NCBI GenBank assembly: GCA_024641245.1
Contig: JAHEDK010000002.1
Span: 167,136 to 231,135 of the forward strand
Length of the DNA: 64,000 nucleotides
Direction: 5' to 3'
Origin: Actinomycetes bacterium
GTDB taxonomy: Bacteria > Actinomycetota > Acidimicrobiia > Spongiisociales > JAHEDJ01
Shown here one piece after another: positions 37,670 to 64,000 of this stretch. Position 1 is the stretch's first letter; every line of letters begins with the position of its first letter. Below the pieces are notes generated by a model. It saw only the letters and a list, made by a program, of their open reading frames with translations. It searched no databases and was not told where the DNA came from. Position numbers and translations under genes: made by a program.

Positions 37670-37811
37670 TCAATACGAAGCACTCAACACGAGGTGCGGC
37701 GTTCGGCCCGTCGCGATTCGACACTCCGTCGGGTCGGGTTGCTACTCTCCACCGCACCCCGGCGCCGAGCCGGGAGTCGTACAGTAGGGTGTCGACGACG
37801 GAGCATCTGGT

Positions 37812-46844: not shown

Positions 46845-47250
46845 TTCGATTCGCAAGATCGCGGCGGCGGTGGTGACTATCGGCCTGGCGGTTGTCGTCG
46901 TAATCGGCCTCATCCAGGGCGACCGAACCGATGAAGATCGCGCCCGGTCCATCGGCTCCAGAGTGAAGTGTCCCGTTTGCCAGGGCGTAGCCATTGCCGA
47001 TTCTCCTTCGGAAACTGCCAGAGCGATGATGGACGTCGTCGAAGAGCGAATCGCAGACGGGTGGTCGGACAGACAGATCATCGACTACTTCGCGGAGCGC
47101 TACACCGACAGCATCGTCATCGACCCGCCCTTCAGCGGGAATACGCTGCTCGTCTGGCTGCTGCCGATCCTGGCAGTAGTCGCAGGCTTCTTCATGATCT
47201 TCTCCCGGCGCAAGACGCCGGTGCCAAAACCCGATGAGGTGAAACAGTGA
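46837..47250 (+). CDS. ccmH: cytochrome c-type biogenesis protein CcmH (CxxC)
   Basis: VKCPVCQG motif, C-terminal TM; GTG start overlapping ccmF stop. Confidence 0.75.
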   Translation: MSDSIRKIAAAVVTIGLAVVVVIGLIQGDRTDEDRARSIGSRVKCPVCQGVAIADSPSETARAMMDVVEERIADGWSDRQIIDYFAERYTDSIVIDPPFSGNTLLVWLLPILAVVAGFFMIFSRRKTPVPKPDEVKQ

Positions 47251-48794: not shown

Positions 48795-49484
48795 ATGCAG
48801 AGAACAAACGAGCTGACACAAGGCGCGCGGCGGCTGGCCTGGTTGACACTTTTGACGCTCGCATGGTTGTTGTGGATGAGTCAGGCGGCCGCCCACGCCC
48901 AGGAACTCCCGGTACGGGATGATCCGTTCTGGAAGACGGACACCTGCCTCGGCTGCCATCAGCAGTCGGACCTGTCGGTGACGCTGCCATCCAACGAGAC
49001 GCTGCGCCTCGCCGTGTATAGAGGCGCGTACGAAGATTCGGTGCATGGTCGAACAGGAGTGGCCTGCCGCAATTGCCATCTCGACATCACGGGGTATCCG
49101 CACCCTGATCTCACCGCCGGAAGCCTGGCCGAGTTCTCAGAACAGCAGGCCAGTTCTTGCGAGATGTGTCACCGTGACCACTACGGCAAAGTGGCGGATG
49201 AGCTGCATGAGGAGTCCGGTGGGTTGCTGTGCTTCGAGTGTCATGATCCGCACACCACCGGCACCGGCTCCGTCTCGGCAGAAGTGCAAGCCTCCTGCAA
49301 CGCCTGCCACTCCGAGGGTATCGCCATTCCTGTCGAGGGGATTCATGCCGCGCCCGAGGTACCTGTCGCGGAGACCACAAGCGGCGTTACAATCCTGCTC
49401 ATCCTCGGCGGAATCTTCGTCGGTTTCGTCGTCCTCGTCTGGCTGGCGACGGTGGCTTGGCGTGTCGTGCGCGACCGAAGCTGA
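48795..49484 (+). CDS. pentahaem c-type cytochrome with signal peptide and C-terminal TM anchor
   Basis: Five CxxCH motifs (CLGCH, CRNCH, CEMCH, CFECH, CNACH); hydrophobic C-terminus ILLILGGIFVGFVVLVWLATVAW. Confidence 0.8.
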   Translation: MQRTNELTQGARRLAWLTLLTLAWLLWMSQAAAHAQELPVRDDPFWKTDTCLGCHQQSDLSVTLPSNETLRLAVYRGAYEDSVHGRTGVACRNCHLDITGYPHPDLTAGSLAEFSEQQASSCEMCHRDHYGKVADELHEESGGLLCFECHDPHTTGTGSVSAEVQASCNACHSEGIAIPVEGIHAAPEVPVAETTSGVTILLILGGIFVGFVVLVWLATVAWRVVRDRS

Positions 49485-49625
49485 TCGGGCCCGTTTCCGC
49501 AGGTTAGCTTGTAGCAATTCCCAATCTTGTGCGCCCTTTCACATGGGTCGAATGACCCTACGCGATCTGCGCGCGGATCCGTCATCATGTCGGTACACGA
49601 GTCGAGTAGCTCCCGGGGAGGAAGC

Positions 49626-51698
49626 ATGAGTCGATTTCGACACACACGCTTGGTTGTGCTTGTCGCCCTGCTGATGGTCTTAGCGGCCTGCACGAGCAGC
49701 GCCGACGACACCACCACTACGGGAGCGGAAGGGTCAACGCCCACGACAGCTCCACCGGTCGTCGAGCCGGCGGAATCCGAGCTCGTGGTTCCGTTCCTAG
49801 CGGCCTGGGTCGGTTCTGGACACAACGACGCGACTGCTGAAGCCTTCGTGCACTGGAATGAGGACGACCCCCAGGTCATTCCGACCAGTTGCGCGAAGTG
49901 CCACAGCACCCCCGGTCACCTCGATTTCCTCGGAGCCGACGGCAGCCCGTTCGGCAGCGTTGAAGCCGACGCCCCCATCGGGACCACGATCCAATGCGAA
50001 GCGTGCCACAACGATGTCACGATCTCCCTGGACAGCGTCGTGATGCCATCGGGTCTCGAACTCACCGGCCTCGGCGACGAATCCCGTTGCATGAACTGCC
50101 ACCAGGGCAGGGAGTCCAAGATCAGCGTGGACGCATCGATTACCGAAGCGGGCGTCGAAGAGGACACCGTCTCCGAGGATCTGGGTTTCCGGAACATCCA
50201 CTACTTCGCGGCTGCCGCCACCAAATACGGTACCGAAGCCAAGGGTGGCTATGAGTACGAGGGCAAGACGTACGATGCGTTCTTCGTCCACGTCGAGGGA
50301 TACTCGACCTGTATTCAGTGCCATGATCCGCACACGCTGGAACTGAAGATCGCCGAATGCTCGACATGCCACACCGGTGTCGCCACGGTTGAGGATCTCC
50401 GAGATGTCCGTATGCCGGGATCACTCGTCGACTTCGACGGAGACGGGAATCTCGAAGAGGGCATCTACTACGAACTCGAGGGCGTGCGGGGACTCTTGCT
50501 CCAGGCCATTCAGGCGTATGCCTCCGAGGTGGCGGGAACCGGCATCACCTACGATGCCAACGCCTACCCGTACTTCTTCGATGAGGCCGGCAAGGGCTTT
50601 GGCGCGTGGACCCCGCGTCTGCTCAAAGCGGCGTACAACTATCAGGTGTCCCTCAAGGACCCGGGAGCATTCGCGCACGGTGGCAAGTACATCCTCGAGT
50701 TGATGTACGACTCGATCGAGAACCTCAACGAAGCCATCTCGTCGCCCATCGACATGACGGCGATGCACCGAATCGACCACGGGCACTTCGCCGGGTCCGA
50801 GGAAGCCTTCCGGCACTGGGACGAGGATGGCGCCGTGCCGGCTTCGTGCTCACGGTGCCACTCGGCTGGAGGCGTGCCGCTGTATCTGCAGGAAGGCGTG
50901 ACGATAACCCAGCCAACTTCCAACGGGTTCAACTGCTCGACGTGCCACAACAGCACGAGCGAGTGGACCCGGTATGAGGTCCTCGATGTGACCTTCCCGA
51001 GCGGTGCGACTATCGACAGCGGCGACCAGAACGCCAACCTTTGCATGACCTGTCACCAGGGCCGTGAATCCGGCGCAAGCGTCGACCGGCGGATCGGAGA
51101 CACCGGGGCGGATACCGTCAGCGACACACTTGGCTTCATCAACGTGCACTACCTGCCGGCGGGCGCCACGCTCTTCGGCAGCGAGGCAGCGGGTGGCTAC
51201 CAGTACGCCGGGCAGACCTATGCCGGAGCCAACGATCACCCCATCGCCACGTGCACGGGTTGCCACAGCGCCCACACACTACAGGTTGAGGTTGAGGCCT
51301 GCGGGGGTTGCCATCAGGGGACGAACTCTGAAGAAGACCTGCAGGACATCCGCATCACCGCCGGCGACTTCGATGGTGACGGCGACGAGGCCGAGGGCAT
51401 CGCCGGAGAGGTCGAGACCATGCGCGAAGCCCTGCTGGCGGCGATGCAGGCGTATGCGGACGCCACGGACGGCGTGAGCCCGATCGTGTACGACGCCCAC
51501 GCCTATCCGTACTTCTTCAACGACGCCGGTGAGAGCTATTCGACCTGGACGCCGCGTCTGCTGAGGGCCGCCTACAACTACCAGTACGCAACGAAGGACC
51601 CTGGTGCGTTCGCCCACAACCCGGCCTACGTGCTCGAGTTGTTGTATGACTCGCTGGCGGACATCGGCGCCGACGTGACGGGGCTGATCAGGCCGTAG
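49626..51698 (+). CDS. decahaem c-type cytochrome lipoprotein (two tandem pentahaem halves)
   Basis: Start ATG after GGAGGAAG; lipobox LAAC; ten CxxCH motifs; residues ~90-400 and ~400-690 are clear internal duplicates (e.g. YPYFFDEAGKGFGAWTPRLLKAAYNYQ vs YPYFFNDAGESYSTWTPRLLRAAYNYQ). Confidence 0.85.
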   Translation: MSRFRHTRLVVLVALLMVLAACTSSADDTTTTGAEGSTPTTAPPVVEPAESELVVPFLAAWVGSGHNDATAEAFVHWNEDDPQVIPTSCAKCHSTPGHLDFLGADGSPFGSVEADAPIGTTIQCEACHNDVTISLDSVVMPSGLELTGLGDESRCMNCHQGRESKISVDASITEAGVEEDTVSEDLGFRNIHYFAAAATKYGTEAKGGYEYEGKTYDAFFVHVEGYSTCIQCHDPHTLELKIAECSTCHTGVATVEDLRDVRMPGSLVDFDGDGNLEEGIYYELEGVRGLLLQAIQAYASEVAGTGITYDANAYPYFFDEAGKGFGAWTPRLLKAAYNYQVSLKDPGAFAHGGKYILELMYDSIENLNEAISSPIDMTAMHRIDHGHFAGSEEAFRHWDEDGAVPASCSRCHSAGGVPLYLQEGVTITQPTSNGFNCSTCHNSTSEWTRYEVLDVTFPSGATIDSGDQNANLCMTCHQGRESGASVDRRIGDTGADTVSDTLGFINVHYLPAGATLFGSEAAGGYQYAGQTYAGANDHPIATCTGCHSAHTLQVEVEACGGCHQGTNSEEDLQDIRITAGDFDGDGDEAEGIAGEVETMREALLAAMQAYADATDGVSPIVYDAHAYPYFFNDAGESYSTWTPRLLRAAYNYQYATKDPGAFAHNPAYVLELLYDSLADIGADVTGLIRP

Positions 51699-51745
51699 CG
51701 TGACAGAGGGGGCCGGGCACACACCCGGCCCCCTCGTTGTTCCCC

Positions 51746-51795
51746 CTTCTTGCGTCACTTTGGGGCTCGATGTGCCCGGAAGTGACGCAAGAAGT
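51746..51795. repeat. palindromic repeat element, copy B (13-bp perfect arms cttcttgcgtcac / gtgacgcaagaag, 24-nt spacer)
   Basis: Same arms as copies at 7469-7526 and 52755-52871; abuts the 3' end of the DUF559 gene. Confidence 0.55.
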
Positions 51796-51796
51796 C

Positions 51797-52720
51797 TCAA
51801 GCAGCCTGGTGGATCGCGGCCAGGACTTCCGCAACAACGGAATCCGGCCGGCCAATCAGGTCCCACCAGGTGTATCGAAGCGTTCTCCAGCCGAGTAGCT
51901 CTGTCTGGTTCTGGATCACGCGGTCTCTGCGAAACGTGGGGCGATCCATGTGAAACGCTTCGGAGTCGAGTTCGATCCGCAGGCGGTGCTCGATGAAGGC
52001 GAAGTCGGCCCGGCATACGAACGTCCCGTCAGGGTTTCTGATCTCCACCTGTGGCGTCGGTTGCGGCGTACGGAGCCCCCACGACCGGCGAAACAGATCT
52101 TCCAGTTCGCTCTCGGTGACGCCATCCCAGTGGAGCCGCTGCTCGACGAACGGCCGTATGACCCCGACTCCCCTGCGGCCGCGCCTGGCGACCCGGCCGA
52201 CCAGCGCGGCAACACCTTCGAGCGTAAAGCTCCGAGTTCTCAGACCTCTATCGAGAGCCGACTCGACCAGCCACGGCGCGCTGGCGCCCAGATCGACGAC
52301 CGTTCGGACCGGAGTGGTCACCGGGATACCCGAGACCTCCGCCGAGTCCTCGGGAGCGAGATCGGTCGACTCGTGAACGACGAACTCCTGATGCGCCCGA
52401 TTCCAGCGGGGCATCACTACCTCGATGCGCGGAGGCTTGCGATCAACCAGGCCGTGCAGGAATGCAGCGGTCTGGTGGGAGGCCAGCGCCAGATCGCCTG
52501 CGGTCGTGGTCGCGATGAGCACGGCCTGATGCCAGTCGCGCGGCACGGCGGGGAAAACGTACGTGCGGTAGGCCACCCGCTCGAGCACTCCGCGGGACGT
52601 CAAACCTTTCAACTGATCTGAGCTGAGCCCTGCCTCAATGACAGCAGCACGATCGACTACGCCGTGTCGCAAGGCGGCCCTCTGAGTGAGAATCTGCAAC
52701 GGTGTCATGCCCAACACCAT
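51797..52720 (-). CDS. DUF559 endonuclease-domain protein (AbiEi-like N-terminal HTH + Vsr/RE-like fold)
   Basis: C-terminal DUF559 motifs (VEIRNPDGTFVCRADFAFIEHRLRIELDSEAFH) of the widely amplified actinobacterial family; start set at MVLGMT. Confidence 0.7.
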   Translation of the reverse strand: MVLGMTPLQILTQRAALRHGVVDRAAVIEAGLSSDQLKGLTSRGVLERVAYRTYVFPAVPRDWHQAVLIATTTAGDLALASHQTAAFLHGLVDRKPPRIEVVMPRWNRAHQEFVVHESTDLAPEDSAEVSGIPVTTPVRTVVDLGASAPWLVESALDRGLRTRSFTLEGVAALVGRVARRGRRGVGVIRPFVEQRLHWDGVTESELEDLFRRSWGLRTPQPTPQVEIRNPDGTFVCRADFAFIEHRLRIELDSEAFHMDRPTFRRDRVIQNQTELLGWRTLRYTWWDLIGRPDSVVAEVLAAIHQAA

Positions 52721-52754
52721 CAAGGTTGGGTGTGACAAATCCCGAACCCAGTGA

Positions 52755-52871
52755 ACTTGCGTCAGAAACGGGCGCCGGCCGCCCCAAACTGACGCAAGAA
52801 AGGGATAGGGGCGCCACCTTCTCGTTCTTGCGTCAGTGTTCCGAGCAACGGGCCCAGAAGTGACGCAAGAA
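52755..52871. repeat. palindromic repeat element, tandem copies C and D
   Basis: acttgcgtcag...ctgacgcaagaa (52755-52800) and ttcttgcgtcag...gtgacgcaagaa (52825-52871), each with a 23-nt GC-rich spacer. Confidence 0.55.
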
Positions 52872-52939
52872 TGAGGAGAGACAGAGAAGTGGGGAGCCTT
52901 TCGGCTCCCCACTTCGGGTGTTCGTTAAGCGACTCTTGT

Positions 52940-53935
52940 CTACGGCAGGCGGCCTGCTCCGTGGCAACTCACGCAGAGGGCATCCGGGATGTTCTTCAGC
53001 AAGTACGCCTTGGTAGACGTATGCGGATAGTCGAAGGATGTCCCATCATCGGGATTGCCGTGGCAGCGCGTGCAGCGCGGATGGTTGTTGTGCGTTTCCG
53101 AGTCCACTCTTGGCTCGTGGCACGATCCGCACCACGCATCCGACCCATCCCGTCCGTCCCACACCAGTGGTGCGTTGGCGAACTGGAAGTTCGGGTTGCG
53201 CGACAACAGCTTGTACCCGTAGGCGTACGAAGTGAAGGCATCACCGTCGGAGTCCTCGAGCGTCGCGTAAGCACAGGCAGCGTTGAATCCGTCTCCAAGC
53301 ACCACCGCGCCATCAGCGGCTGCGCACCAATGCCAGACACCTTCGGCCCCGTCGAAATCGAGGGCCAAAGGAGCACCCCTGCTACCAGCGGCAACAGTTG
53401 TGCCCTCATCGGCAGGGTATACCCACTTGTTGATCAATTGGCCGAAGTCACCGTGTGGCGTGTGGCAGGTGCCGCACGACAACGAGCCTTCGACGGCCGA
53501 GTTCGTAGTACGGCCGTCATACCCGAAAATGAACGCACCATCAGGGCTCACCGAAGCCCCCGGCGTGTGTCCGTTCCCCAGGTTGGAGCTGTACACAGCC
53601 CGATCCGAGGCGGTACCCGACGGCGCTGCCGCCGACCAACCAGGTCGCGGACCTGTGGGATCGGCGCCCATATAGCTATGGCAGGTCGCACAGACGGCCT
53701 CGATGCTGGACAACGCCATCAACGCGTAGGCGCCGGCGGCGTCGTGCACGTCGTGACACTGCAGGCAGAAGTCCGTCGAGGCGCTGTAGCCACCGTGGGG
53801 CGACACGTTGCCGTCATAGGGATCTCCTAGTGCTGGTGGCTCCGTCGGCGTCTGCGCGACGGCAGCCGTCATCGGCACCAACAACGCAGCCACCATGCAG
53901 ACAACGAGACCGACGGTTCGTATTCGTCGTCTCAA
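52940..53935 (-). CDS. secreted hexahaem c-type cytochrome
   Basis: TTG start 5 nt after GGAGG; signal peptide ...AAVAQ; six CxxCH (CLQCH, CATCH, CGTCH, CGSCH, CTRCH, CVSCH). Confidence 0.75.
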   Translation of the reverse strand: MRRRIRTVGLVVCMVAALLVPMTAAVAQTPTEPPALGDPYDGNVSPHGGYSASTDFCLQCHDVHDAAGAYALMALSSIEAVCATCHSYMGADPTGPRPGWSAAAPSGTASDRAVYSSNLGNGHTPGASVSPDGAFIFGYDGRTTNSAVEGSLSCGTCHTPHGDFGQLINKWVYPADEGTTVAAGSRGAPLALDFDGAEGVWHWCAAADGAVVLGDGFNAACAYATLEDSDGDAFTSYAYGYKLLSRNPNFQFANAPLVWDGRDGSDAWCGSCHEPRVDSETHNNHPRCTRCHGNPDDGTSFDYPHTSTKAYLLKNIPDALCVSCHGAGRLP

Positions 53936-54249
53936 TTCACCCTCCTCCCGATCGGGCGCTAGCCCGACGTCATGGGAGCCGACCGCTCCCTCCAGTCCCT
54001 TTCCAAACCGTTCCCCGTGCCGCCCTGCGACTCGGGGTGCCCAATCAACGATCAGGATAATCAGACCTTTTAGGTCAAAATATGCCGATAGCACTTGGCG
54101 TATTCATCACTCTATGTGTTTGTCGACACGGCGTCAAGTTGGAGAAGGGCCCCATAACGACAGGGCCGTTCGGCCCTATCAACGAGGCACACCGCACTAC
54201 CGAAATCGGCCGGAACAGGTATTATTTATCTCAGGGTGGCGGAGGATAA

Positions 54250-55752
54250 TTGACCAAACTCGTCAAGTTTCGAGTAATGGGTGTATTTCGTCAGCGGATC
54301 GTGCTTGCGACCACGCTGAGCGTTTTCTTCGGCGTTCTCACGTTCCTGCCGGCTGCAGCCGGGCCCGGCCAACCCGCGGACGCAGCAGCAAGTTCGATGC
54401 CCCTCACAATCCTTGCGATGGCGCAGGCAGCTGAGTTCCCGGATCCCCACGGCCTCCTCAACGCCAACAGCAACGGGTGTCTCTCCTGCCACGACACACA
54501 CGACGCGCCCGGGCCGGCGTTGCTGGCAACTGCCACCGAAAAGGAAGCCTGCTACCGGTGTCACGATGGGAGCGGTGCCACGGCCAACATCCGGGCAGCA
54601 TTCGGTGAGTCGATACTCGGGGAGAGTACCCAACGTTCATACCATCCCCTCCCCCACGCGCTCGACGGATACTCGGTAACTTGTGGCGACTGCCACACGC
54701 CGCATCAGGCTCGATCCGAGTTCACGAAGCTCCTGCGTATCAACGACGGTTCCGGCGGCTGGGTCTACTCGCCGACCGACACACCGATTGGCAACACCTA
54801 CTGCTACCGGTGCCACGGCACCGATTCTCCATTCCCCGCACCATTCGGCGATCAGACCACGTTCGAGGGAGGCGTACACCAGGTGCTCGGTGGCGATCCT
54901 CCCTCGGGATCGGGCATCCAGTGCGTGAACTGTCACGACGGCCACGGTTCGGCCTACCCGGGCCTCTCGCAACAAGAGGCCACCTGCTTCACCTGCCACA
55001 ACACGGCAACGCCCAACACCAACCCCGATCTGCCCTTCGACACCACCGAACTCGAGTACGCCTTCACGGCCGTAGCCAACGACTACGACGCCACCGACGC
55101 CGACGGCTTGATTCGCATCTACCACCACCCCATCGGCGACGATGAACAAGACGGCGGGAGCCGTCGGGTCGAGTGCGCCTCATGCCACAACGCTCATCGA
55201 GTTGACCGCGACTACTCAGGAACTGGGAGCAAGATTTCGAATCCGGGAGACACCCGGGGGGACGTCGCCATTACGTGGACGGACGGCACGTTCACCCGGG
55301 GCACCATCTCACAGTTTTGCGTTGCGTGTCACCAGGACCCGGCCACGACCGCTCCAATCAACGCCGGCACCTGGGTCCCCTACGACATACGGCTCACCGA
55401 CGACTCAGCCGTCCTCAACGGGAGCGGCGGACCCCACGACACTTTCGACGCAACGTACTATTTCACCAACGAACGGTCTGACCACGGTGCGGGCGCCCAA
55501 CTCGCCTGCACCGCCTGCCACGACCCGCATGGCTCATCGAACGCCTACATGTTGCGCGAGAATGTGATCAGCCCTGGCGGAGCGGGTGTGCCCGCCGGCA
55601 CCGTCGGCCCTCGGGTGACCGGATTCGTCGATGAGGACACCCCAGAACAACAGACAATCCTCTCGGGCTTCTGTGGCAGCTGCCACGGCGATCACCACAC
55701 CCCCAACAGGCTCTGCACACAGTGCCACAATCACGGATCGCCGCGGTTCTGA
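54250..55752 (+). CDS. secreted undecahaem c-type cytochrome
   Basis: Signal peptide; 11 CxxCH motifs (CLSCH, CYRCH, CGDCH, CYRCH, CVNCH, CFTCH, CASCH, CVACH, CTACH, CGSCH, CTQCH). Start may be the ATG at 54277. Confidence 0.85.
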   Translation: MTKLVKFRVMGVFRQRIVLATTLSVFFGVLTFLPAAAGPGQPADAAASSMPLTILAMAQAAEFPDPHGLLNANSNGCLSCHDTHDAPGPALLATATEKEACYRCHDGSGATANIRAAFGESILGESTQRSYHPLPHALDGYSVTCGDCHTPHQARSEFTKLLRINDGSGGWVYSPTDTPIGNTYCYRCHGTDSPFPAPFGDQTTFEGGVHQVLGGDPPSGSGIQCVNCHDGHGSAYPGLSQQEATCFTCHNTATPNTNPDLPFDTTELEYAFTAVANDYDATDADGLIRIYHHPIGDDEQDGGSRRVECASCHNAHRVDRDYSGTGSKISNPGDTRGDVAITWTDGTFTRGTISQFCVACHQDPATTAPINAGTWVPYDIRLTDDSAVLNGSGGPHDTFDATYYFTNERSDHGAGAQLACTACHDPHGSSNAYMLRENVISPGGAGVPAGTVGPRVTGFVDEDTPEQQTILSGFCGSCHGDHHTPNRLCTQCHNHGSPRF

Positions 55753-55811
55753 TGACAGACCCGACCTCCATCACCCGGCGAATGCCATTGGGCCCTACAG
55801 GACACAATTCG

Positions 55812-55860
55812 ACCGCGGGTACCGTCGCGTTAGGACCCGCGGGTGCTGTCAGGAACCGCG
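55812..55860. promoter_or_regulatory. three related CCGCGG-core palindromes (accgcgggt, ACCCGCGGGT, aaccgcggat) upstream of the Rrf2 gene; candidate operator array
   Basis: Perfect 10-bp palindrome at 55836-55845 flanked by two 9/10 variants at ~24 and ~18 nt spacing, ~80-120 nt upstream of the Rrf2 start. Confidence 0.35.
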
Positions 55861-55936
55861 GATTGGGCCACATGGGAGAGAGGCGAGGGCCCGCAATGGT
55901 TTGTGAATGCCGTGAGTGGTCGAGAGGGGGCCCACG

Positions 55937-56362
55937 GTGTTGATCACCCGCGAGGTCGACTACGCCGTGCGCTGTGTTCTCGACGTAGCCCGCACCGGGC
56001 ACACCTCCACCGGAGCAGTCGCCGAACGGGCCGGGATACCCCCATCGATCCTCGGGCGCATCGTGGCGGCTGTATCGAAAGCCGGCATACTCACTACCAG
56101 ACGAGGAGTCAAAGGCGGCATCGATCTTGCGCGCGATCCAAGCGAGATCAGCCTGCTTGACGTCATAGAGGCGGTGCAAGGTCCGCTCTTCGTCAACATC
56201 TGCTGCGAGCATCCCGAAACCTGTGACGCCGCTACCAACTGTCCGATCCGACCCGTCTGCGAGGACGCCTTCGACGAGCTGAGACGGGTCTTCTCGGTGA
56301 CCTACGACACATTGCTCAACGGCGGCCACGTTCCTCTCCGCCCGTTCGTCCAAGAGGAGTAG
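55937..56362 (+). CDS. Rrf2 family transcriptional regulator (IscR/NsrR-like, three-Cys cluster)
   Basis: N-terminal wHTH (TREVDYAVRCVLDVA...STGAVAERAGIPPSILGRIV) and Cys cluster CCEHPETC...C...C; GTG start after GAGAGGGGG. Confidence 0.8.
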   Translation: MLITREVDYAVRCVLDVARTGHTSTGAVAERAGIPPSILGRIVAAVSKAGILTTRRGVKGGIDLARDPSEISLLDVIEAVQGPLFVNICCEHPETCDAATNCPIRPVCEDAFDELRRVFSVTYDTLLNGGHVPLRPFVQEE

Positions 56363-56423
56363 GCGTGTATTACCTGGGGACCATTGCGGCCTATAGCGCA
56401 CCCCATCTCGTCGGGTTTTCGCG

Positions 56424-57296
56424 ATGAAGCGACGAACCCAGCTTTACGCGCTCGGCGGACTCCTCATTGTTGTTTCGTTTGCCGCCTGGCGGTTGACGGA
56501 CGATCCGGCAATCGAACCACCGCTGATCCCGATCGCAGCAACCGCCGTGGTCGCAGACTCCGACTTCGACGCGTGCCTCGAGTGCCACGACGACATCGAG
56601 CAATCCCTCCAAGCCGGACTGGTGCAACTCATCGGATTTCGACACGAAGAGCACTTCTCGAATTCCGGCGACGTCGGTTGCGGCAACTGCCACGGTCTCG
56701 ACACGCACGATCGCACCCCGCCGCAGGCACCGACCATGGAGGATTGTTTTTCGTGCCACCTCGACGCCGGGCCGGCTGCCGAGTTGCCGTGTCTCCGCTG
56801 TCACGACAACGCCACTGTGCCACCGCCGCAGAGCCACTTCACCTCAGAGTGGCGCGACGTTCACGGCTCCGGCGCCCTGCTCAGCCAGTCGCTGTGCGAG
56901 ACCTGCCACTCGCGACAAGATTTCTGCACGGCGTGCCACGGTGTCGATATTCCGCATCCAGACGGATGGACCGGCTATCCACACGCACGTGCGACGTTCG
57001 ATTCGGGCATCGAGTCGTGTGCACGCTGCCACGAGCGCGGTCCGGAACTGACGGCTCGCGACGAATGTGACGGCTGCCACCATCCGCAGAACCCCGCAGA
57101 ACCCATCTGGAAGGATGCTCACCCAGAGGTGGTCCGAAGCCAGGGTGGCTCGACGTGCTTCGAGTGCCACGACCCCAACACATGCGCCACATGTCACACA
57201 TCGGGAGTTGAAGACTTCTCCGCCGATCTCAACCGGCTCGAAGTGCCCGGCCCACCAAAGGTCACGGAGTCACCGCCCGAGGACGGTGACTCGTGA
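56424..57296 (+). CDS. membrane-anchored decahaem c-type cytochrome
   Basis: N-terminal TM; ten CxxCH motifs (CLECH, CGNCH, CFSCH, CLRCH, CETCH, CTACH, CARCH, CDGCH, CFECH, CATCH). Confidence 0.85.
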   Translation: MKRRTQLYALGGLLIVVSFAAWRLTDDPAIEPPLIPIAATAVVADSDFDACLECHDDIEQSLQAGLVQLIGFRHEEHFSNSGDVGCGNCHGLDTHDRTPPQAPTMEDCFSCHLDAGPAAELPCLRCHDNATVPPPQSHFTSEWRDVHGSGALLSQSLCETCHSRQDFCTACHGVDIPHPDGWTGYPHARATFDSGIESCARCHERGPELTARDECDGCHHPQNPAEPIWKDAHPEVVRSQGGSTCFECHDPNTCATCHTSGVEDFSADLNRLEVPGPPKVTESPPEDGDS

Positions 57297-58309
57297 GTCT
57301 GTCCCCGGTACCCATCGGACCGGCGGGACGCTCGCCCGGAATCCCATTCCCGGCACCACCGACCGCCCTCCGGCGATTCTCAACGCAACCACCGCCACCT
57401 CCCGACGGCGAGCCATCTCGCCGTCCCGAGCTTCGTGCCCTCGGTGACGGGGCGGGCTCGGGAAGGGACAACAGGGCATCGGAGCCACGCGGGTCTCGCT
57501 GGCTTCGGCGCCTCGTCATCATCGTCGCGACCGTCGGCGCCCTCGTATTCGTCGCCTCCTGGAGCTACGCCTCGTCATCGCGCAACATGTGCGGAAGCTG
57601 TCATAGCGTCTCGGCGGCTGCAGAATCCGCCGGTGATTCGGTGCACGCAGATATCCCGTGCCTCGCCTGCCACAGGCAAGCGGGCATCGTCGGAGCGTTC
57701 ACCTACCTCCCTGTGCTGCTGCGCGAGTCTGTTCACGAGCTGACTGGACTCTCTATCGCCGAAGGAGTGCTCGACCCCGTCGGATGTGGTTCTTGTCACT
57801 CTTTCCTATCCGACGCGGCGGCGCGAGGCGATCATCCGGACGAGACAGCAGAATGCTCGTCCTGCCACGGCAACGTAGCCCACCCGGGAGCCGGGACGGC
57901 TCCGGAAGGGGACGGCCATCCGTCCGGGTTCTTCGCTTTCCACGGCCGGGATTCCGTCGCTTCGCCCGGATCATGCGCAGAATGCCATAAGAACGACTTC
58001 TGCTCGGCCTGCCACTTCCGCACGGAGTATCCGCATCCGGAAACCTGGACGTCGCTCCATGGTCCGGCGTCAATCGAAGGCGGCCCCGCTGCTTGTGTGA
58101 TGTGCCACGAGCCCACGTACTGTTCGAGCTGTCACGGCGCCGACATCCCCCATCCGGACAACTGGTTCGAGATCCATCATCGGGCAACCGACCCGGCAGT
58201 CGGGTCGGCCTGCCTATCGTGCCATGCAGCCTCCGAGTGCTCCTCCTGCCACGTCCGGCACTCAGTTCACAACGAGCAAGGGCTCTACCAGTGGGACCTC
58301 AAGCCATGA
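57293..58309 (+). CDS. membrane-anchored decahaem c-type cytochrome with NapC/NirT/NrfH-like N-terminus
   Basis: Pro-rich cytoplasmic tail, single TM then CGSCHS immediately after it (NapC/NrfH-like topology); ten CxxCH in total; start overlaps upstream stop. Confidence 0.8.
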   Translation: MSLSPVPIGPAGRSPGIPFPAPPTALRRFSTQPPPPPDGEPSRRPELRALGDGAGSGRDNRASEPRGSRWLRRLVIIVATVGALVFVASWSYASSSRNMCGSCHSVSAAAESAGDSVHADIPCLACHRQAGIVGAFTYLPVLLRESVHELTGLSIAEGVLDPVGCGSCHSFLSDAAARGDHPDETAECSSCHGNVAHPGAGTAPEGDGHPSGFFAFHGRDSVASPGSCAECHKNDFCSACHFRTEYPHPETWTSLHGPASIEGGPAACVMCHEPTYCSSCHGADIPHPDNWFEIHHRATDPAVGSACLSCHAASECSSCHVRHSVHNEQGLYQWDLKP

Positions 58310-59157
58310 AAGGCATCCGGGTGCTCATGACTGTGGTCCTCACTCTCGTACTCGCTGAGGTGACGCTCGTGGCCTTCGTGACCTTCTCCGAGGATGCCCG
58401 GGGCGCGGTCACCGACGCGTGGGCCAAGACCGTGAACGCGTGGGCCGGCTCGGAGGAGCGGGCAGGCAATTTCGAGCTGCTCCTGTCGTCTGCAGACGAG
58501 TTCGCTGCTGAATGGGTCCAGCCATTGTGGAGCGCGCCGGAGGCGGCTCCGGCCGGCACCGGATTCTCCGAATGCGTGACCTGCCACACGGATTACGCCG
58601 AACGTCGCCTGTTCACCGGCGTCTTCATGAATCATCCACTGCATTCGGAGTTGGGAATCGCGTGCGCCGAATGCCACACCGACGTTGCGCATCCCCTCCC
58701 TCTCCCTCCGGCCGAAGAGACTTGTGCAGGGTGCCACAATCAAGTCGAACGAGACGGCCCGGCCTCCGACTGTAGCTATTGCCACAAACCTGGCTCGCTG
58801 GCGCACTATCAGTCACTTGGCGTTCCCGACGGAGCCGCCAACTGCAGCACCTGCCACCTTCCGGATTCGTTCGGGCACACCGATCAGCACGCCTTGACGG
58901 TTACTCCAAGCTTCGATGGAACCGATTCCGCCGTCTGCCTCAACTGCCATCAGGCGGCCGCCTGCGCTCGATGCCATGATTCCTCCCACCCGGCCGACTG
59001 GGTATCCCTTCACGGCGCAGAGGTCCAGGACGCCGGTACCGGCGCCGGCTCCTGCGCGGCGTGTCATTCGACAAACTGGTGCGCTGGAGCCTGCCACCTG
59101 AGTGGAACTCTCCAGGGCGGCAGGCTGCTCCCCCTACCGATCGGAGACGATGACTGA
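58306..59157 (+). CDS. membrane-anchored multihaem c-type cytochrome (8 CxxCH + 1 CxxxCH)
   Basis: N-terminal TM; CVTCH, CAECH, CAGCH, CSYCH, CSTCH, CLNCH, CARCH, CAACH plus WCAGACH (CX3CH); ATGA-type overlap with upstream gene. Confidence 0.8.
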   Translation: MKGIRVLMTVVLTLVLAEVTLVAFVTFSEDARGAVTDAWAKTVNAWAGSEERAGNFELLLSSADEFAAEWVQPLWSAPEAAPAGTGFSECVTCHTDYAERRLFTGVFMNHPLHSELGIACAECHTDVAHPLPLPPAEETCAGCHNQVERDGPASDCSYCHKPGSLAHYQSLGVPDGAANCSTCHLPDSFGHTDQHALTVTPSFDGTDSAVCLNCHQAAACARCHDSSHPADWVSLHGAEVQDAGTGAGSCAACHSTNWCAGACHLSGTLQGGRLLPLPIGDDD

Positions 59158-59819
59158 TGGCGAATCGACGAACCTTGCTCGTGCTCGTGGGCACGATCGG
59201 TGCGGTGGCAGCTGCTGCGGCCATCTGGATCGTAGGCGGCGCCGATCCGGATCCACTCATCGCCGAGGTGGATGGGATTCCGATCCGGCAATCACAAGCG
59301 GACTCGCGGATTGAAGGCATCGCCTCGATTCACGGCGACATCACGACGACGCTCGGTAGCGAGTGGAGAGCCACCGTGCTGCAGTCCCTCGTCGATGACG
59401 TGATCGTTCAGATCGAAGCCGACCGGAGATCCCTCGAACCGACCGATGCCGATCTCGAACAAGCAGTCGCCGATACCAAGGCAATGGTGGGTACCGATGC
59501 GGACTGGGAGATCTGGCTTACGGACCAGGGGCTCGACGACGAGGAAGTTGAGCGGCGCCTGACCACCCAGATCAGGACCAACCGTGTGTACGACGCGGTC
59601 ACCGCCGATGTGACTATCGCGCGCACCGACCTCGAGGCCTACTACGAGGCGAACCTCGACCAGTTCACCGTCGACGGCGCCGTCAGAGAACTCTCCGAGG
59701 TCGAAGAGCAAATCAAGGTGGCCGTTGAAAGCATGATGCGAGATCGCGTCTACGCCGAGTGGATCGACGCCCGCCGGGCCGAAGTCATCCTGGAGGTGGT
59801 GCACGATGACTGGCGATAG
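59157..59819 (+). CDS. SurA N-terminal-domain-like periplasmic chaperone (membrane anchored)
   Basis: N-terminal TM; SurA_N/PpiD-like helical domain; start overlaps upstream TGA. Confidence 0.5.
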   Translation: MANRRTLLVLVGTIGAVAAAAAIWIVGGADPDPLIAEVDGIPIRQSQADSRIEGIASIHGDITTTLGSEWRATVLQSLVDDVIVQIEADRRSLEPTDADLEQAVADTKAMVGTDADWEIWLTDQGLDDEEVERRLTTQIRTNRVYDAVTADVTIARTDLEAYYEANLDQFTVDGAVRELSEVEEQIKVAVESMMRDRVYAEWIDARRAEVILEVVHDDWR

Positions 59820-60480
59820 GCAACCCGCCGACAGGGAGCAGAATGTCAACGTCCTCCTGGTCATTGTCGGCTTGTTGACGCTCCTCGTGGTCGGGCTCGG
59901 TGCAGCCGTTGTCTTCATCCAACTCAACTCCGATCCGGTCCCCCAGACGGTTGCCGAACGGGACCTCAATCTCTGGCTGCGCCTCGCCGACGACAATCCT
60001 GATGCCGTATGGGCACAGGTCGGCCTGGGGCAAGCACACCTGGCAGGCCAGGATATGGAGGCCGCCCGGGCTGCCTTCGCAGCGGCCCTGGCCATCGATC
60101 CGGCTTCGCCGGAAGCACTGTTCCAGATGGGGCTCCTCGTCCGAGCAGAGGATCCGAATCTGGCCGTCGATTACCTTCGGCGAGCCGTCGAAGCCGCAAC
60201 GGGAGCAGACAAGGCGCGCCCGAACCTGGCGCTCGGAGATCTTCTGATGGAGCGAGGCGACTGGGAAGCGGCGCGGCTGGCCTATGAGTCGTCCATAGCC
60301 AATCTCCCCTTCCTATTGCCCGCGCACCTGGGACTTGCCCGGTCCCTCGAAGCGCTCGGTGACTCCGACGGTGCCCTTGCCGCCTACCTCCAGGCCTCGG
60401 CCTTCGATCCGACGGATCCCGAGATCAAGGAGGCGATCACTCGCCTCGGAGGCACCCAACCCGAGACAACGAACCCGTAG
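59806..60480 (+). CDS. membrane-anchored TPR-repeat protein
   Basis: Single TM followed by 3-4 TPR-like repeats. Confidence 0.6.
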   Translation: MTGDRQPADREQNVNVLLVIVGLLTLLVVGLGAAVVFIQLNSDPVPQTVAERDLNLWLRLADDNPDAVWAQVGLGQAHLAGQDMEAARAAFAAALAIDPASPEALFQMGLLVRAEDPNLAVDYLRRAVEAATGADKARPNLALGDLLMERGDWEAARLAYESSIANLPFLLPAHLGLARSLEALGDSDGALAAYLQASAFDPTDPEIKEAITRLGGTQPETTNP

Positions 60481-60488
60481 GAGCACCG

Positions 60489-61655
60489 ATGGACAGACCA
60501 CCACCAGGACCGATTGCGCACCAGCCACCGCCGTCTCCAGCGCCGGAATCGGGCAATGCCACCCAGACCACTCGCCGCCTAATGATCGGCATGATCATCG
60601 TGCTGTCACTCGCTGCCATCGGCCTGCTCATCCTCCTCCTGTTGCTCCTTCGATCCGGGGAGGAGCCCCAGTCGCTGGCGATGCCCGACGATTGCCCGCT
60701 CGACATCTCCCGCTCGGTATACGGATACGGAGCGGAGTTGGATCAGTTGCTCAACAAGCCGCTGGCCGTCACATTCGACGGCAGTGAGAACCTCTGGGTC
60801 TCCGATACCGGGAACGGGCGGGTCCTGGCACTCGACACCGATGGGAACCTTCTCAGAATCATCGGCACCGAGGAGGGGGCCGGCCGAATGTTCAGCCCGT
60901 ATGGCCTCGCCTTCGATGAGACCTACCAACGGCTCTACGTTGCCGACTGGACAGCCCGATTCGTGTTCATCTATTCGCCGGACGGGCGGTACATCGAGCG
61001 CATACCCGCAGATGACCAGGATTTGACGATCTTCGGCGAAGCCGGGTTCACGCCGTTCCATGTCGAGGTATGGGGGGCGCAGATAATCGTCTCCAGCAAC
61101 GATGGGCTGTATTTCTTCGACCGGGCGGGGCATGTCACCGACCACTGGGGCCAACGTGGGGCTGAGGCCGGGGAGTTTGCGTTCCCCGATGCCTTCGACA
61201 TCGACCGCACCGCCGGAACGTTCTACGTCGCGGACACTCTCAATCGTCGGGTCGTCGCACTCGATTCCGCAGGCGAAGTCCTGTGGATCTCCGGCCGGCC
61301 AGACCAGGCAGGGGCAATCACCGGGTTCTGGCAGCTCCCGCGGTCTATCACCGTCGGGCAGGACGGAAATGTGTACGTCGTCGACACATTCAGGGCGCAG
61401 GAGAAGTGCTCCGGGATGGGACACGTTGTGGTGCTCGATCCCGGCGGCGAACTCGTCTCCGAATTTGGAGCGGCCGGCAGCCAGGAATGGGCGTTCAGTT
61501 TCCCGGAGAAGCTCGCAATCGGTCCAAACGGTACATTCGGGCTCGCTGACCGAGAAAAGGGTCGCGTGGTGGTGTTCGACGTTGGACAGCTTCCACCGGC
61601 CGACGAGTCCGAGGCGGACAAGTACCTGCAATCGTTCACCCGCTTCGATGATTGA
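60489..61655 (+). CDS. membrane-anchored NHL-repeat (six-bladed beta-propeller) protein
   Basis: Pro-rich N-tail, TM, then repeated NHL-type blades (VSDTGNGRVLALDTDGN, YVADTLNRRVVALDSAGE, YVVDTF...). Confidence 0.75.
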   Translation: MDRPPPGPIAHQPPPSPAPESGNATQTTRRLMIGMIIVLSLAAIGLLILLLLLLRSGEEPQSLAMPDDCPLDISRSVYGYGAELDQLLNKPLAVTFDGSENLWVSDTGNGRVLALDTDGNLLRIIGTEEGAGRMFSPYGLAFDETYQRLYVADWTARFVFIYSPDGRYIERIPADDQDLTIFGEAGFTPFHVEVWGAQIIVSSNDGLYFFDRAGHVTDHWGQRGAEAGEFAFPDAFDIDRTAGTFYVADTLNRRVVALDSAGEVLWISGRPDQAGAITGFWQLPRSITVGQDGNVYVVDTFRAQEKCSGMGHVVVLDPGGELVSEFGAAGSQEWAFSFPEKLAIGPNGTFGLADREKGRVVVFDVGQLPPADESEADKYLQSFTRFDD

Positions 61656-61799
61656 GGGTGACGGACCCGGGCCGAAGGCCCAATCATCAAAGGTGTTCCT
61701 GACCCTTTAGTAAGTGACTCAGGTCCCTGGAGCGGCCGGCAGGTCATGCGATAGCTTGACGAGGAGAGATCGGACCAACAACCGATCCCGGAGAGATCG

Positions 61800-62909
61800 A
61801 TGCGCACCAAGCTGCAAGGGTTCGCTCTGTGGGGGATGCTGTTCTTTGCCGTCGTCGGACTCACGGCCCTGTCGGCCGACCCGGCCTCAGCGCAGGATTC
61901 CGCCGACTCGGAAGTCAACAACTACTGCCTGGGATGCCACGAATCCGGGAACATCATTCTCACGTTCCCGTCGGGGGAGATGCTTCCCGCCGTGGTGCCG
62001 CGTACCGTTTTCGACGCCTCTATCCACGGTCAGGTCGGCCTCACCTGCATCGCCTGTCATACCGATATCGGGCAGTACCCACACGACCCCATGTCGGCCG
62101 TCACCCGGCGAGACCTGGCGATCGAGTTGTACACCACGTGCTTCAACTGCCACGAGAGCGAATACACCGACACGCTCGACAACATGCACACCGAAGCTCT
62201 CGCCGGCGGCAACCGGGAAGCCGCCGTCTGCACCGACTGCCACGGCGCTCACAACGTCACCCACCCCAGCGTCGACACAACGGCCATCCCGCGCACCTGC
62301 CGGAACTGCCACTCCGAGATCTACGACCTGTACGCCGGCAGCATCCACGGTGCCGCCCTACTCGAACACGACAATCAGGACGTTCCAAGCTGCACGAGTT
62401 GTCACGGCGTCCACAGTGTTGAAGGACCCTCGCACTCGCAATTCCACCTGTTCTCACCGAAAATCTGCGAGGACTGCCACGCCGATGAAGCTCTCATGGG
62501 CAAGTACGGGATCAGCACGGCGGTCTTCGACACCTACGTAGCCGATTTCCACGGCACGACGGTCATGCTCTTCGAGGAACTGGCGCCCGACCAGAAGACC
62601 AACTCGCCGGTCTGTATCGACTGCCACGGCGTGCACAACATCCTGGCCGCCAACGAGGTCGACTCGACCGTCTACAAGGAGAACCTGCTCCTCACCTGTC
62701 AGCGGTGCCACCCAGACGCCACCGCCAACTTCCCCGACTCGTGGATGAAGCACTACCAACCGACCTCCGACCAGGCGGTCCTTGTCTGGCTGGTCAATTG
62801 GTTCTACCGACTCGTCATCCCCGGCGTCGTGGGGGGCATGCTCGTCTGGGTGACGATCGACGGCATTCGCCACTTGCAGCATCGACGGAAGGCGGCCGAG
62901 AGTGTCTGA
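61800..62909 (+). CDS. nonahaem c-type cytochrome with signal peptide and C-terminal TM anchor
   Basis: Nine CxxCH motifs (CLGCH, CIACH, CFNCH, CTDCH, CRNCH, CTSCH, CEDCH, CIDCH, CQRCH); C-terminal hydrophobic helix VIPGVVGGMLVWVTI. Confidence 0.85.
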   Translation: MRTKLQGFALWGMLFFAVVGLTALSADPASAQDSADSEVNNYCLGCHESGNIILTFPSGEMLPAVVPRTVFDASIHGQVGLTCIACHTDIGQYPHDPMSAVTRRDLAIELYTTCFNCHESEYTDTLDNMHTEALAGGNREAAVCTDCHGAHNVTHPSVDTTAIPRTCRNCHSEIYDLYAGSIHGAALLEHDNQDVPSCTSCHGVHSVEGPSHSQFHLFSPKICEDCHADEALMGKYGISTAVFDTYVADFHGTTVMLFEELAPDQKTNSPVCIDCHGVHNILAANEVDSTVYKENLLLTCQRCHPDATANFPDSWMKHYQPTSDQAVLVWLVNWFYRLVIPGVVGGMLVWVTIDGIRHLQHRRKAAESV

Positions 62910-64000
62910 CGTCCTTGAGCGCGCAGCAGTCGACGTCGAACTGGACGATCGGATACTGCGTTTTGGAAAGGCGGATCGCATCGAGCATGCGGTCCAGGTA
63001 ATCAGCTTCGCCGGCCTCGGCCTCACTGGGCTGATCCAGAAGTTCTTCGAGTCGGCGATTTCTCAGTGGTGGATTGAGTTCCTTGGTGGGTTGCCACAGG
63101 TGCGCGTCATTCATCGCTGGCTGGCGACCATCCTCATGCTCGCCGTCATCTGGCACTTCGGTAAAGCCGGATATCGCACGTACGTCGAACGGCGACCGCG
63201 AGCCATGGTCCCGAGCAAGCGCGACTGGATTGCCATCAAGGAATCGATCGCGGTGCTGGCGGGACGGCGTCACGAACCTGTGAAACAAGGTCGATTCACG
63301 TTCGCGGAGAAGGTCGAGTACTGGTCGTTCGTCTGGGGCACCGTCTTGATGATCGCCACCGGCTATATGCTGTGGAACCCGATTTCCACCGCCAAGTTCC
63401 TCCCCGGTGATTTCATCCCGGCCGCCAAAGCGGCACACGGTGGAGAAGCGATCCTGGCTGTGCTGGCCATCCTCGTCTGGCACATCTACCACGTGCACAT
63501 CAAGCATTTCAACAAGAGCATCTTCACCGGCTACATCAGCCGGGCAGAGATGATCGAAGAACATGGCCTCGAACTCGAGGCGATGGAGGCGGGCAAGACC
63601 GGTCCGCAGGCGACACAAGCCGAGATTGTGGAGCGGCGGCGCAAGTTCCTTCCCGCCTTCGGTGTTGTGGCGGTCCTCATGATGGCCGGCATCTACTGGT
63701 TCGTGAGCTTCGAGGATACGTCGATCGCCACCATCGAGCCCATCGAAAACGTGGTGGCATACAAGCCACTGCCTCCTGAACAGCAGAGCGGCCCGGCGCT
63801 TTCTGGTGACAATCCGCTCCCGACCATCGTCATCCCCGACACCACCCTCCCCACCGAGACGACGGTGCCGCAGGGTGAAGTCACATGGGCCACGGTTGGG
63901 CCCGTTCTGGCCGATAGCTGCGGTACGTGCCATTCGGCCTCGAACTCCATGGGCGGGCTCGACCTTTCGTCGTACGAGGGGGCGCTGGGTTCCGAGGGAG
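62902..64000 (+). CDS. FdnI/HydC-type dihaem cytochrome b membrane subunit with C-terminal c-type haem (CGTCHS) extension; 3' end outside window
   Basis: Absent from the ORF track because the frame runs off the window; GTG start overlaps the upstream stop. Four TM helices with conserved His (RIEHAVQVISFAGLGLTGL; HRWLATILMLAVIWH; YWSFVWGTVLMIATGY; AAHGGEAILAVLAILVWHIYHVH), then Pro/Thr linker and CGTCHSASNSMGGLDLSSY. Confidence 0.7.
   Translation, partial: MSDVLERAAVDVELDDRILRFGKADRIEHAVQVISFAGLGLTGLIQKFFESAISQWWIEFLGGLPQVRVIHRWLATILMLAVIWHFGKAGYRTYVERRPRAMVPSKRDWIAIKESIAVLAGRRHEPVKQGRFTFAEKVEYWSFVWGTVLMIATGYMLWNPISTAKFLPGDFIPAAKAAHGGEAILAVLAILVWHIYHVHIKHFNKSIFTGYISRAEMIEEHGLELEAMEAGKTGPQATQAEIVERRRKFLPAFGVVAVLMMAGIYWFVSFEDTSIATIEPIENVVAYKPLPPEQQSGPALSGDNPLPTIVIPDTTLPTETTVPQGEVTWATVGPVLADSCGTCHSASNSMGGLDLSSYEGALGSEG

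Follow-up and report, generated by a model that had tools for sequence, protein, structure and literature searches.

In the Thermincola model of extracellular electron transfer (EET), electrons are handled by a membrane decahaem, a periplasmic decahaem, a wall hexahaem and a surface cytochrome of NrfA fold (PMC7911101, PMC6703420); NHL proteins go unmentioned in one Thermincola EET paper. Dethiobacter alkaliphilus, a Gram-positive iron reducer, has NHL and TPR genes inside multihaem clusters that it over-expresses on ferrihydrite (PMC10376724). Geobacter sulfurreducens CbcL joins nine CxxCH haem motifs to a HydC/FdnI-type dihaem cytochrome b and is proposed to act as quinol oxidase/quinone reductase for EET; a 2018 survey found no homologue of it in Actinobacteria (PMC6295460). 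Among Coriobacteriia, Parvivirga hydrogeniphila (PMC9686372), an obligate Fe(III) reducer available in culture, and Coriobacteriales S27 (PMC7399161) carry 17–37 multihaem cytochromes, with Fe(III) or anode respiration. Here we describe a multihaem cytochrome island in a 64,000-nucleotide stretch of DNA from an Actinomycetes bacterium (contig JAHEDK010000002.1, positions 167,136 to 231,135; hereafter the window). We think that the island probably encodes a monoderm-type EET network of an Acidimicrobiia-lineage actinobacterium, a reading that we draw from the gene content and the predicted protein features.

The original prediction, made from the sequence alone, had called such a system rare or undescribed in actinobacterial genomes. 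Given the published Coriobacteriia sets this was too strong (PMC7399161, PMC9686372): multihaem-based iron reduction is already known in that class, and the category is therefore not new. What appears to be new, as far as our literature and database searches show, is a conserved cluster of three cytochromes (C5, C6 and C7) with a SurA-like, a TPR and an NHL protein, linked to an Rrf2 regulator and to bc complexes, in uncultured Actinomycetota including Acidimicrobiia. The same searches suggest novelty for a split CbcL-like module in the phylum, for the cassette-like replacement of the C6-to-NHL block and for the ecological setting of the sister genome.

Haem content and topology of the island

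A six-frame scan with codon-position filtering of guanine-plus-cytosine (GC) content recovered eight multihaem cytochrome open reading frames (ORFs; C1–C8, Table 1) within the roughly 15-kb island. Together they hold 69 CxxCH motifs and one CX3CH, and the counts given in the original prediction (5, 10, 6, 11, 10, 10, 8 plus one CX3CH, and 9) were reproduced exactly. A chance origin of the motifs is excluded, since the 37 likely genes at window positions 1–34000 (10,863 amino acids) contain 0 CxxCH and the background composition would give about 0.007 per 5,000 amino acids. Cys makes up 3.0% and His 4.0% of the island proteins (0.8% and 2.3%, respectively, elsewhere), and 8/8 cytochrome ORFs match multihaem Pfam families. 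Identical proteins were called on independent assemblies from four sequencing runs, from which we conclude that the genes are real. The start of the eight-haem gene C7 was corrected from 58093 to 58306 by the gene call on locus L001, and the assemblies also revised the limits of the Rrf2 gene and of the cytochrome b gene at the window end to those given in Table 1.

From C5 to the cytochrome b gene the string is operon-like, with overlaps of 1–14 bp or gaps of at most 144 bp. Haems are densely packed, with about 26–31 residues per haem in C5–C7, about 26–46 across C5, C7 and C1, and about 69 in C2. The His counts permit bis-His ligation of nearly all island haems.

Hydropathy, lipobox and signal-peptide-like N-termini support the topological classes that had been assigned to the cytochromes. 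C5, C6 and C7, like the SurA-like, TPR and NHL proteins, have one N-terminal hydrophobic helix each; C3 and C4 have an N-terminal signal only, and C1 and C8 combine a signal-peptide-like N-terminus with a C-terminal hydrophobic helix. Judged by these predicted features, the set would meet the needs of a cell that lacks an outer membrane. Indeed, all accessory proteins carry a single N-terminal anchor, as expected where there is no outer membrane. The GC content is uniform throughout the window (0.62–0.64), and a recent horizontal acquisition of the whole island is therefore unsupported by base composition.

Table 1. Positions in the window of the island genes, of the genes upstream of it and of the segments compared with the sister genome (TM, transmembrane helix; aa, amino acids; nt, nucleotide).
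Feature	Position	Strand	Description
C1	48795-49484	+	5 CxxCH; signal-peptide-like N-terminus; C-terminal TM anchor, hydrophobic residues 191-209
C2	49527-51698	+	10 CxxCH; 723-aa lipoprotein; start probably 49626; duplicated pentahaem module
AbiEi/DUF559-like	51797-52720	-	Pfam
C3	52940-54094	-	6 CxxCH; secreted; Paired_CXXCH_1 domains; real start probably near residue 55-67; signal peptide ends AVA/QT
C4	54250-55752	+	11 CxxCH; secreted; N-terminal hydrophobic signal
Rrf2-family regulator	55937-56362	+	PF02082 E=3e-27
C5	56424-57296	+	10 CxxCH in 290 aa; N-terminal hydrophobic anchor or signal
C6	57293-58309	+	10 CxxCH; TM 74-92; NrfH/NapC-type tetrahaem module plus six haems (putative)
C7	58306-59157	+	8 CxxCH plus one CX3CH at residue 259; N-terminal anchor
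SurA-N-like chaperone	59157-59819	+	PF13624 E=4e-8; TM 8-26; no peptidyl-prolyl isomerase domain
TPR protein	59806-60480	+	TPR families, E to 1e-15; TM 18-36
NHL beta-propeller	60489-61655	+	PF01436 E=2e-16; TM 36-54; six-bladed
C8	61800-62909	+	9 CxxCH; signal peptide plus C-terminal TM
FdnI/HydC-type dihaem cytochrome b	62902-64000	+	PF01292 E=3e-12; cut by window end; one CxxCH within window; full-length protein (500 aa, locus L003) has two, in two C-terminal monohaem c domains
System I Ccm genes	42482-48685	CcmC, B, A -; others +	CcmC, B, A; CcmF, CcmH, CcmI-like TPR, TlpA/CcmG-like
Two Rieske/cytochrome b6-type complexes	34063-41822	+	Pfam
C3 N-terminus, C4, Rrf2, C5	53852-57229		87% nt identity to sister genome
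C6, C7, SurA-like, TPR, NHL	57230-61670		43-56% aa identity to sister genome (L033 5285-11161)
C8, cytochrome b	61671-64000		92% nt identity to sister genome

The accessory genes proposed earlier (Rrf2, SurA-like, TPR and NHL) were confirmed by Pfam. The Cx5Cx5C arrangement is the cluster-ligand cysteine spacing of IscR and NsrR, and the island Rrf2 protein has it (C-DAATN-C-PIRPV-C; sequence CDAATNCPIRPVC). No common palindrome that could serve as a shared Rrf2 operator was found in five intergenic regions, just unrelated short inverted repeats. The SurA-like protein consists of the N-terminal chaperone domain only. The TPR protein shows a weak CcmH/CycH (CcmI)-TPR resemblance below the cut-off (PF23914, E=4e-5), and the NHL protein has PDB matches to NHL propellers including the sensor domain of M. 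tuberculosis PknD.

Several of the remaining cytochromes have informative relatives. C5 is a weak paralogue of C6 and C7; it is conserved upstream of C6 in 15 loci and duplicated in three. C7 shows short local similarity to the pentahaem ActA of Alternative Complex III (6lod_A, E=1e-8) and local similarity to Geobacter c7-type polymer domains. C3 is paired with C4 in the related loci L005, L011, L021 and L033. For C4 we found 58 homologues, the best being 88% identical and from an Acidimicrobiia metagenome-assembled genome (MAG); relatives of 650–800 amino acids carry FlgD_ig/FN3-type domains, and there is a distant match in a Coriobacteriia MAG.

The AbiEi-antitoxin-like/DUF559 gene (restriction-endonuclease-like) lies between C2 and C3 on the opposite strand, is non-redox and interrupts the island. 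Further upstream in the window are SelD (selenide, water dikinase; 4863-5858, minus strand), a hint that selenoproteins or selenouridine are used, and a cyclic di-GMP protein of response-regulator/GGDEF/HD type (10606-12264, minus strand). ClpS-DUF2017 and GlnE, both encoded in the window, are consistent with an actinobacterium.

Quinol-linked modules and the decahaem lipoprotein C2

C6 had been called a NapC/NrfH-like protein, and its family profile bears this out. The family alignment (A1) keeps ten CxxCH and eleven extra His invariant, and the profile aligns with the whole of D. vulgaris NrfH (PDB 2j7a_C, residues 5–155, the helix and four haems) at E=4e-10. The haems beyond this tetrahaem module come as three CxxCH-x4-CxxCH pairs. 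By curated models C6 stays below the cut-offs (PF03264, 21.7 against 24.1 bits; TIGR03153, 27.4 against 134.2). A first haem motif of the form CxxCHxM is a feature of NrfH; it is present in 6/9 C6 family members, and the C6 of the window has CGSCHSV, with Val for Met. We regard C6 as a putative NrfH/NapC-type quinol-dehydrogenase module extended by six haems.

A second candidate quinol module is formed by C8 and the cytochrome b, whose genes overlap by 8 bp and are translationally coupled. C8 matches MtrA (6r2q_A) only locally (E=2e-7), and its N-terminal half is 32% identical to C1. With TIGR03508 (MtrA/DmsE) C8 reaches 51 bits, C1 29 and C4 58, all below the cut-off of 192, so that the DmsE/MtrA-family match of C1 is sub-threshold as well; no porin-like gene that could supply an MtrB-type partner appears in the Pfam annotations of the island. 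The cytochrome b has about four to five hydrophobic segments and matches FdnI models at E=9e-15, below their cut-off. The pair recurs in the related loci L005, L033 and L025. On the basis of this composition, C8 and the FdnI-like cytochrome b look like a split CbcL-like module.

The candidate terminal protein is C2. Its two halves are 45% identical, giving a tandem duplication of a pentahaem module, and its lipobox LAAC is conserved in the family consensus. The AlphaFold model (predicted local distance difference test score, pLDDT, 85) has an NrfA-type pentahaem fold with a C-terminal helical bundle, and its top Foldseek match is Thermincola OcwA, to which it is structurally similar. The nonahaem layout of OcwA, a c554-like tetrahaem joined to an NrfA-like pentahaem and including two haems of open coordination, was not found, C2 being built from 2 x 5 haems. 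At the sequence level the best PDB match was NrfA over about 100 residues, which is not significant (E=0.057); PF02335 was not reported by Pfam, and NCBIfam matches were far below cut-offs. In each pentahaem module, with its five haems, six His outside the motifs are invariant, which would allow every C2 haem to be six-coordinate. Judged from the model, C2 would thus be a structural member of the NrfA/OcwA/OmhA superfamily without a Lys-ligated catalytic haem.

A fold of this kind also has to be weighed against the main rival reading, in which the island would allow the cell to respire or detoxify soluble oxyanions of nitrogen or sulfur (nitrite, hydroxylamine, sulfite, tetrathionate) between its membrane and its wall. 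C2 would then be an NrfA-superfamily enzyme fed by C6, which holds a true NrfH module, and by the other quinol modules, and the extra haems would serve as relays or storage. The C2 family is conserved in an enzyme-like manner: it has more than 5,500 matches, is 60–78% identical across Acidimicrobiia, Chloroflexota and Abyssubacteria, and keeps the non-haem residues HQGR, NxHY and GGYEY invariant, which hint at a defined site. Its members are duplicated pentahaem lipoproteins of about 715 amino acids, with variants of about 1,030–1,200; no functional study of the family was found in the literature. OcwA itself reduces nitrite and hydroxylamine, slowly (PMC6703420), and the sister MAG discussed below is reported to have narG and to be facultatively anaerobic (PMC11279179).

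Even so, we consider the oxyanion reading unlikely. The original prediction had named close Nrf/Hao/Otr orthology and CxxCK haems as signs of a purely periplasmic role, and we found neither: CxxCK is absent from all island proteins, as is any other known catalytic haem motif, and C2 has no sequence-level match to NrfA, HAO, Otr or MccA and no curated family match. The same holds for the other island cytochromes, all of which score below the curated thresholds for NrfA, NrfB, HAO, Otr and MtrA. The missing significant PDB sequence matches of C2, C3 and C4 lead us to reject close orthology to NrfA, HAO, Otr, MccA, OmcS, MtrC and OcwA. Conserved His are enough to ligate all ten C2 haems. C2 is moreover encoded outside the C6 operon, paired with C1, 5.6 kb upstream, and the core cluster of the relatives has no candidate catalytic subunit. 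Finally, about 70 haems and secreted six- and eleven-haem proteins far exceed the systems that handle soluble substrates.

We also looked at the C2 family in Ardenticatena maritima, a cultured Chloroflexi iron reducer; the largest cytochrome there has 7 haems and gave no functional lead.

Conserved core, cassette-like block and bc-complex neighbours

The C6 family is rare. A word-indexed search of 5.8 billion proteins gave 14 matches, and an exhaustive profile search gave about a dozen full-length clusters among 1.84 billion representatives; the C-terminal dihaem repeat of C6 is more widespread than the full-length protein. Among the GTDB species-representative genomes C6 was found in about 16 MAGs (best match 47%), nearly all labelled Actinomycetota, uncultured Actinomycetes or Solirubrobacterales and including the hot-spring bin HR12. 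No match of the C6 family search was named as Coriobacteriia. The core order Rrf2-C5-C6-C7-SurA-TPR-NHL is kept in about 16 uncultured Actinomycetota MAGs: nearly all of the related loci have an Rrf2 gene ahead of the cluster, the SurA-like position is kept in all, the TPR position is conserved and NHL is conserved as the last gene of the core. In some of these loci the core is adjoined by the C3-C4 pair and by C8 with its cytochrome b.

In L007 (6478-8594), the one related locus annotated in detail, and in L008, HemA (glutamyl-tRNA reductase, of haem synthesis) and a 268-amino-acid hexahaem are encoded between Rrf2 and the cytochrome/bc genes. The L007 hexahaem passes the NapC/NirT Pfam threshold, and a six-haem ORF occupies its position in most other related loci (L012, L016 and others). 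Neither HemA nor the hexahaem is present at the corresponding position in the window.

The closest relative is the Acidimicrobiia MAG GCA_029210695.1, which has the same island order and whose label agrees with the Acidimicrobiia affiliation suggested for the window. Its accession prefix JARGFH opens the published range of Taman mud-volcano MAGs, and the order of the accessions together with the taxon label makes bin C14-01 its most probable identity. This bin makes up 19% of a mud-volcano community rich in anaerobic methanotrophic (ANME-2) archaea, where it is apparently the most abundant one (PMC11279179). In that study the MAG is described as an organic-matter degrader, the MAGs were screened only for MtrA homologues, and the Acidimicrobiia MAG is not among the listed positives (PMC11279179).

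Compared with this sister, the island falls into segments of very different similarity (Table 1). For C6, C7 and NHL the sister is no nearer than the other MAGs, and in its genome an ISL3 transposase (L033 9889-11148) coincides exactly with the right-hand breakpoint. C6-C7-SurA-TPR-NHL, about 45% identical in protein to its sister counterpart, behaves as one exchangeable cassette between close relatives. The apparent exchange of five genes as one block is an independent argument that they work together. C5 at first seemed to be missing in the sister MAG, which we reject, as tblastn finds an intact C5 there (L033 4479-5348, plus strand, 80% identical); the public calls show two small minus-strand ORFs over it (L033 4425-5225), likely an annotation error. 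The body of C3 is 38% identical to that of the sister MAG and adjoins the 88% identical C4. It is tempting to go further and to see in C5, the cassette and the Rieske/b6 genes an unrecognised, actinobacteria-specific wall conduit that is traded as a cassette and makes uncultured Acidimicrobiia metal-reducing partners, or partners in direct interspecies electron transfer, of methane-oxidising archaea. We regard this conjecture as very doubtful.

Upstream of the island the window encodes cytochrome maturation genes and two bc-type complexes. Of the Ccm system, which had been called complete, we find CcmA, B, C, F and H together with a CcmI-like TPR protein and a thioredoxin of TlpA/CcmG type, but CcmE was not detected in the window, either by Pfam on unassigned ORFs or by a six-frame motif scan, and may lie elsewhere in the genome. 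In related loci the Ccm genes lie 3–6 kb upstream of the core. The use of System I (Ccm) for cytochrome maturation in an actinobacterium, always near the cytochrome cluster in the relatives, is an observation in its own right.

Both bc-type complexes that had been proposed were confirmed, each with its own Rieske protein. Complex (i) consists of Rieske, b6 and a PetD fused to eight monohaem class-I c domains. This fused PetD (35069-37666, plus strand, with 34063-35267) has 866 amino acids, 8 CxxCH and seven Cytochrome_CBB3 stretches; its counterpart in related MAGs has a single CxxCH. Complex (ii) (37788-41822, plus strand) comprises a GltD-like NAD(P)/FAD flavoprotein with 2x[4Fe-4S] (37788-39605), b6, PetD, a second Rieske protein (40859-41280) and a monohaem cytochrome c. 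For anammox bacteria, it has been proposed that a complex of similar composition links the oxidation of quinol to the reduction of NAD(P). Counting PetD and the cytochrome b, there are ten class-I monohaem c domains. In at least eight related loci Rieske-b6-PetD is directly upstream of C5.

This genetic tie of the core cluster to Rieske/b6 complexes bears on the direction of electron flow. The flow could instead be inward, with Fe(II), reduced minerals, cathodes or partner cells supplying electrons to the bc complexes and the quinone pool, and with uphill transfer to NAD(P)+ supporting lithoautotrophic growth. The GltD-like NAD(P)-binding FeS flavoprotein of complex (ii) would suit such a route, as would the class-I c domains, a type that is usually high-potential, and CbcL/MtoC-type and NapC-type modules, found in metal reducers and metal oxidisers alike, are regarded as reversible (PMC6295460). 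The linkage to bc complexes, the complex with the flavoprotein and the class-I domains thus leave electron uptake some room. We nevertheless find net inward flow quite unlikely. No Cyc2, carbon-fixation or oxidase context is visible within the window, and the His counts of C1–C8 allow mostly bis-His, probably low-potential haems, suiting outward transfer from menaquinol. The sequence as such contains nothing that fixes the direction.

The same neighbourhood, adjacent to or fused with bc-complex genes in the relatives, could also be taken to mean that the cytochromes buffer electrons internally or extend the bc complexes into a supercomplex, in aerobic or nitrate respiration under fluctuating redox conditions; the description of the sister organism as a facultative anaerobe with narG fits this. 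Such a role appears highly improbable to us, because the secreted or lipoprotein nature of C2, C3 and C4, like the OcwA/OmhA-like fold, suggests a place of action past the surface of the membrane, and because no oxidase or reductase genes were linked to the core cluster in the loci examined.

Proposed electron path and comparison with known systems

For the EET network that we favour, we propose that the island joins the quinones of the cytoplasmic membrane to redox partners lying outside it. Quinol would be oxidised at up to three modules, namely C6, C8 with the FdnI-type cytochrome b, and the Rieske/cytochrome b6 complex, the last of which is encoded in one cluster with C5-C6-C7 in relatives. 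Electrons would then hop along the tethered, haem-dense and mostly bis-His-capable relays C5, C7 and C1 to the secreted or lipid-anchored C3, C4 and C2. Final acceptors may be Fe(III) or Mn(IV) minerals, humics, electrodes or partner cells, and the chain could run in reverse for electron uptake. The SurA-like, CcmI-like TPR and NHL proteins may be dedicated membrane-anchored assembly or scaffold factors, the Rrf2 protein with its Fe-S-type cysteine spacing a likely regulator, and the adjacent Ccm system would attach the haems. Localisation, electron path, direction and substrate are here what we infer from these features.

A number of points weigh against this network. No wall-spanning polymer is recognisable from sequence: compared with OmcS/CwcA-type hexahaems, C3 gave no sequence match, its best PDB hit being a cytochrome c7 at E=0.12. 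The AlphaFold2 model of C4 reaches a pLDDT of only 66, with no Foldseek fold match in the PDB and no PDB sequence match. In three contexts of C2 homologues, at least one of them from Chloroflexota, quinol-interacting modules lie within a few kb, directly upstream in two; these are a multihaem cytochrome with FeS and NrfD subunits, a multihaem cytochrome with cytochrome b, or a NapC-type protein. Because its homologues adjoin membrane quinol modules, C2 may act close to the membrane and not at the outer wall face. In the model its fold is, moreover, as near to NrfA and octahaem nitrite reductase as to OcwA/OmhA, which may leave room for a soluble-oxyanion role of C2. High-potential partners are suggested by the class-I monohaem c domains, and these would suit O2, nitrate or Fe(II) oxidation just as they would suit Fe(III) reduction. 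Finally, for this uncultured organism the envelope type is an assumption based on the phylum.

If the proposal is right, multihaem EET extends from Firmicutes and Coriobacteriia to an uncultured Acidimicrobiia-related clade of soils, groundwater, hot springs and mud volcanoes. A compact genetic marker would then be at hand, made up of Rrf2, three cytochromes, the SurA-like, TPR and NHL proteins and often Rieske/b6. For the sister MAG, the island suggests that in place of degrading organic matter it could take part in reducing Fe(III) or in exchanging electrons with ANME-2 archaea.

How does the island compare with what has been described? The Coriobacteriia sets belong to a different class, and no shared cluster architecture has been reported for them. 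Of the NapC/NirT family, which includes NrfH and CymA, D. vulgaris NrfH aligns with the N-terminal helix and the first four haems of C6; C6 differs in its six further haems and in having no NrfA partner gene. CbcL has the same composition of nine haems plus a HydC/FdnI-type cytochrome b as C8 with its cytochrome b, a likeness by composition. However, CbcL is one polypeptide with about six transmembrane helices and the island module consists of two genes with an 8-bp overlap; additionally, the island b subunit carries two monohaem c domains and C8 has its own C-terminal helix.

Closer in overall character are the Gram-positive systems. OmhA, the surface-layer undecahaem of Carboxydothermus ferrireducens (PDB 6qvm), shares its fold with C2, and NHL and TPR genes also stand among the multihaem genes of the Dethiobacter alkaliphilus Fe clusters. 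Both organisms belong to another phylum, with no detectable sequence orthology, and the C5-C6-C7-SurA-TPR-NHL order, the Rrf2 gene and the bc-complex linkage are not described there. For Thermincola potens and T. ferriacetica a role-for-role parallel with ImdcA, PdcA, CwcA and OcwA can be drawn from the descriptions, although OcwA is a nonahaem protein with no sequence-level homology to C2, a duplicated pentahaem lipoprotein. Compared with Thermincola, the island adds a CbcL-like b/c module, the links to Rieske/b6 and System I Ccm genes, and a high-GC actinobacterial host.

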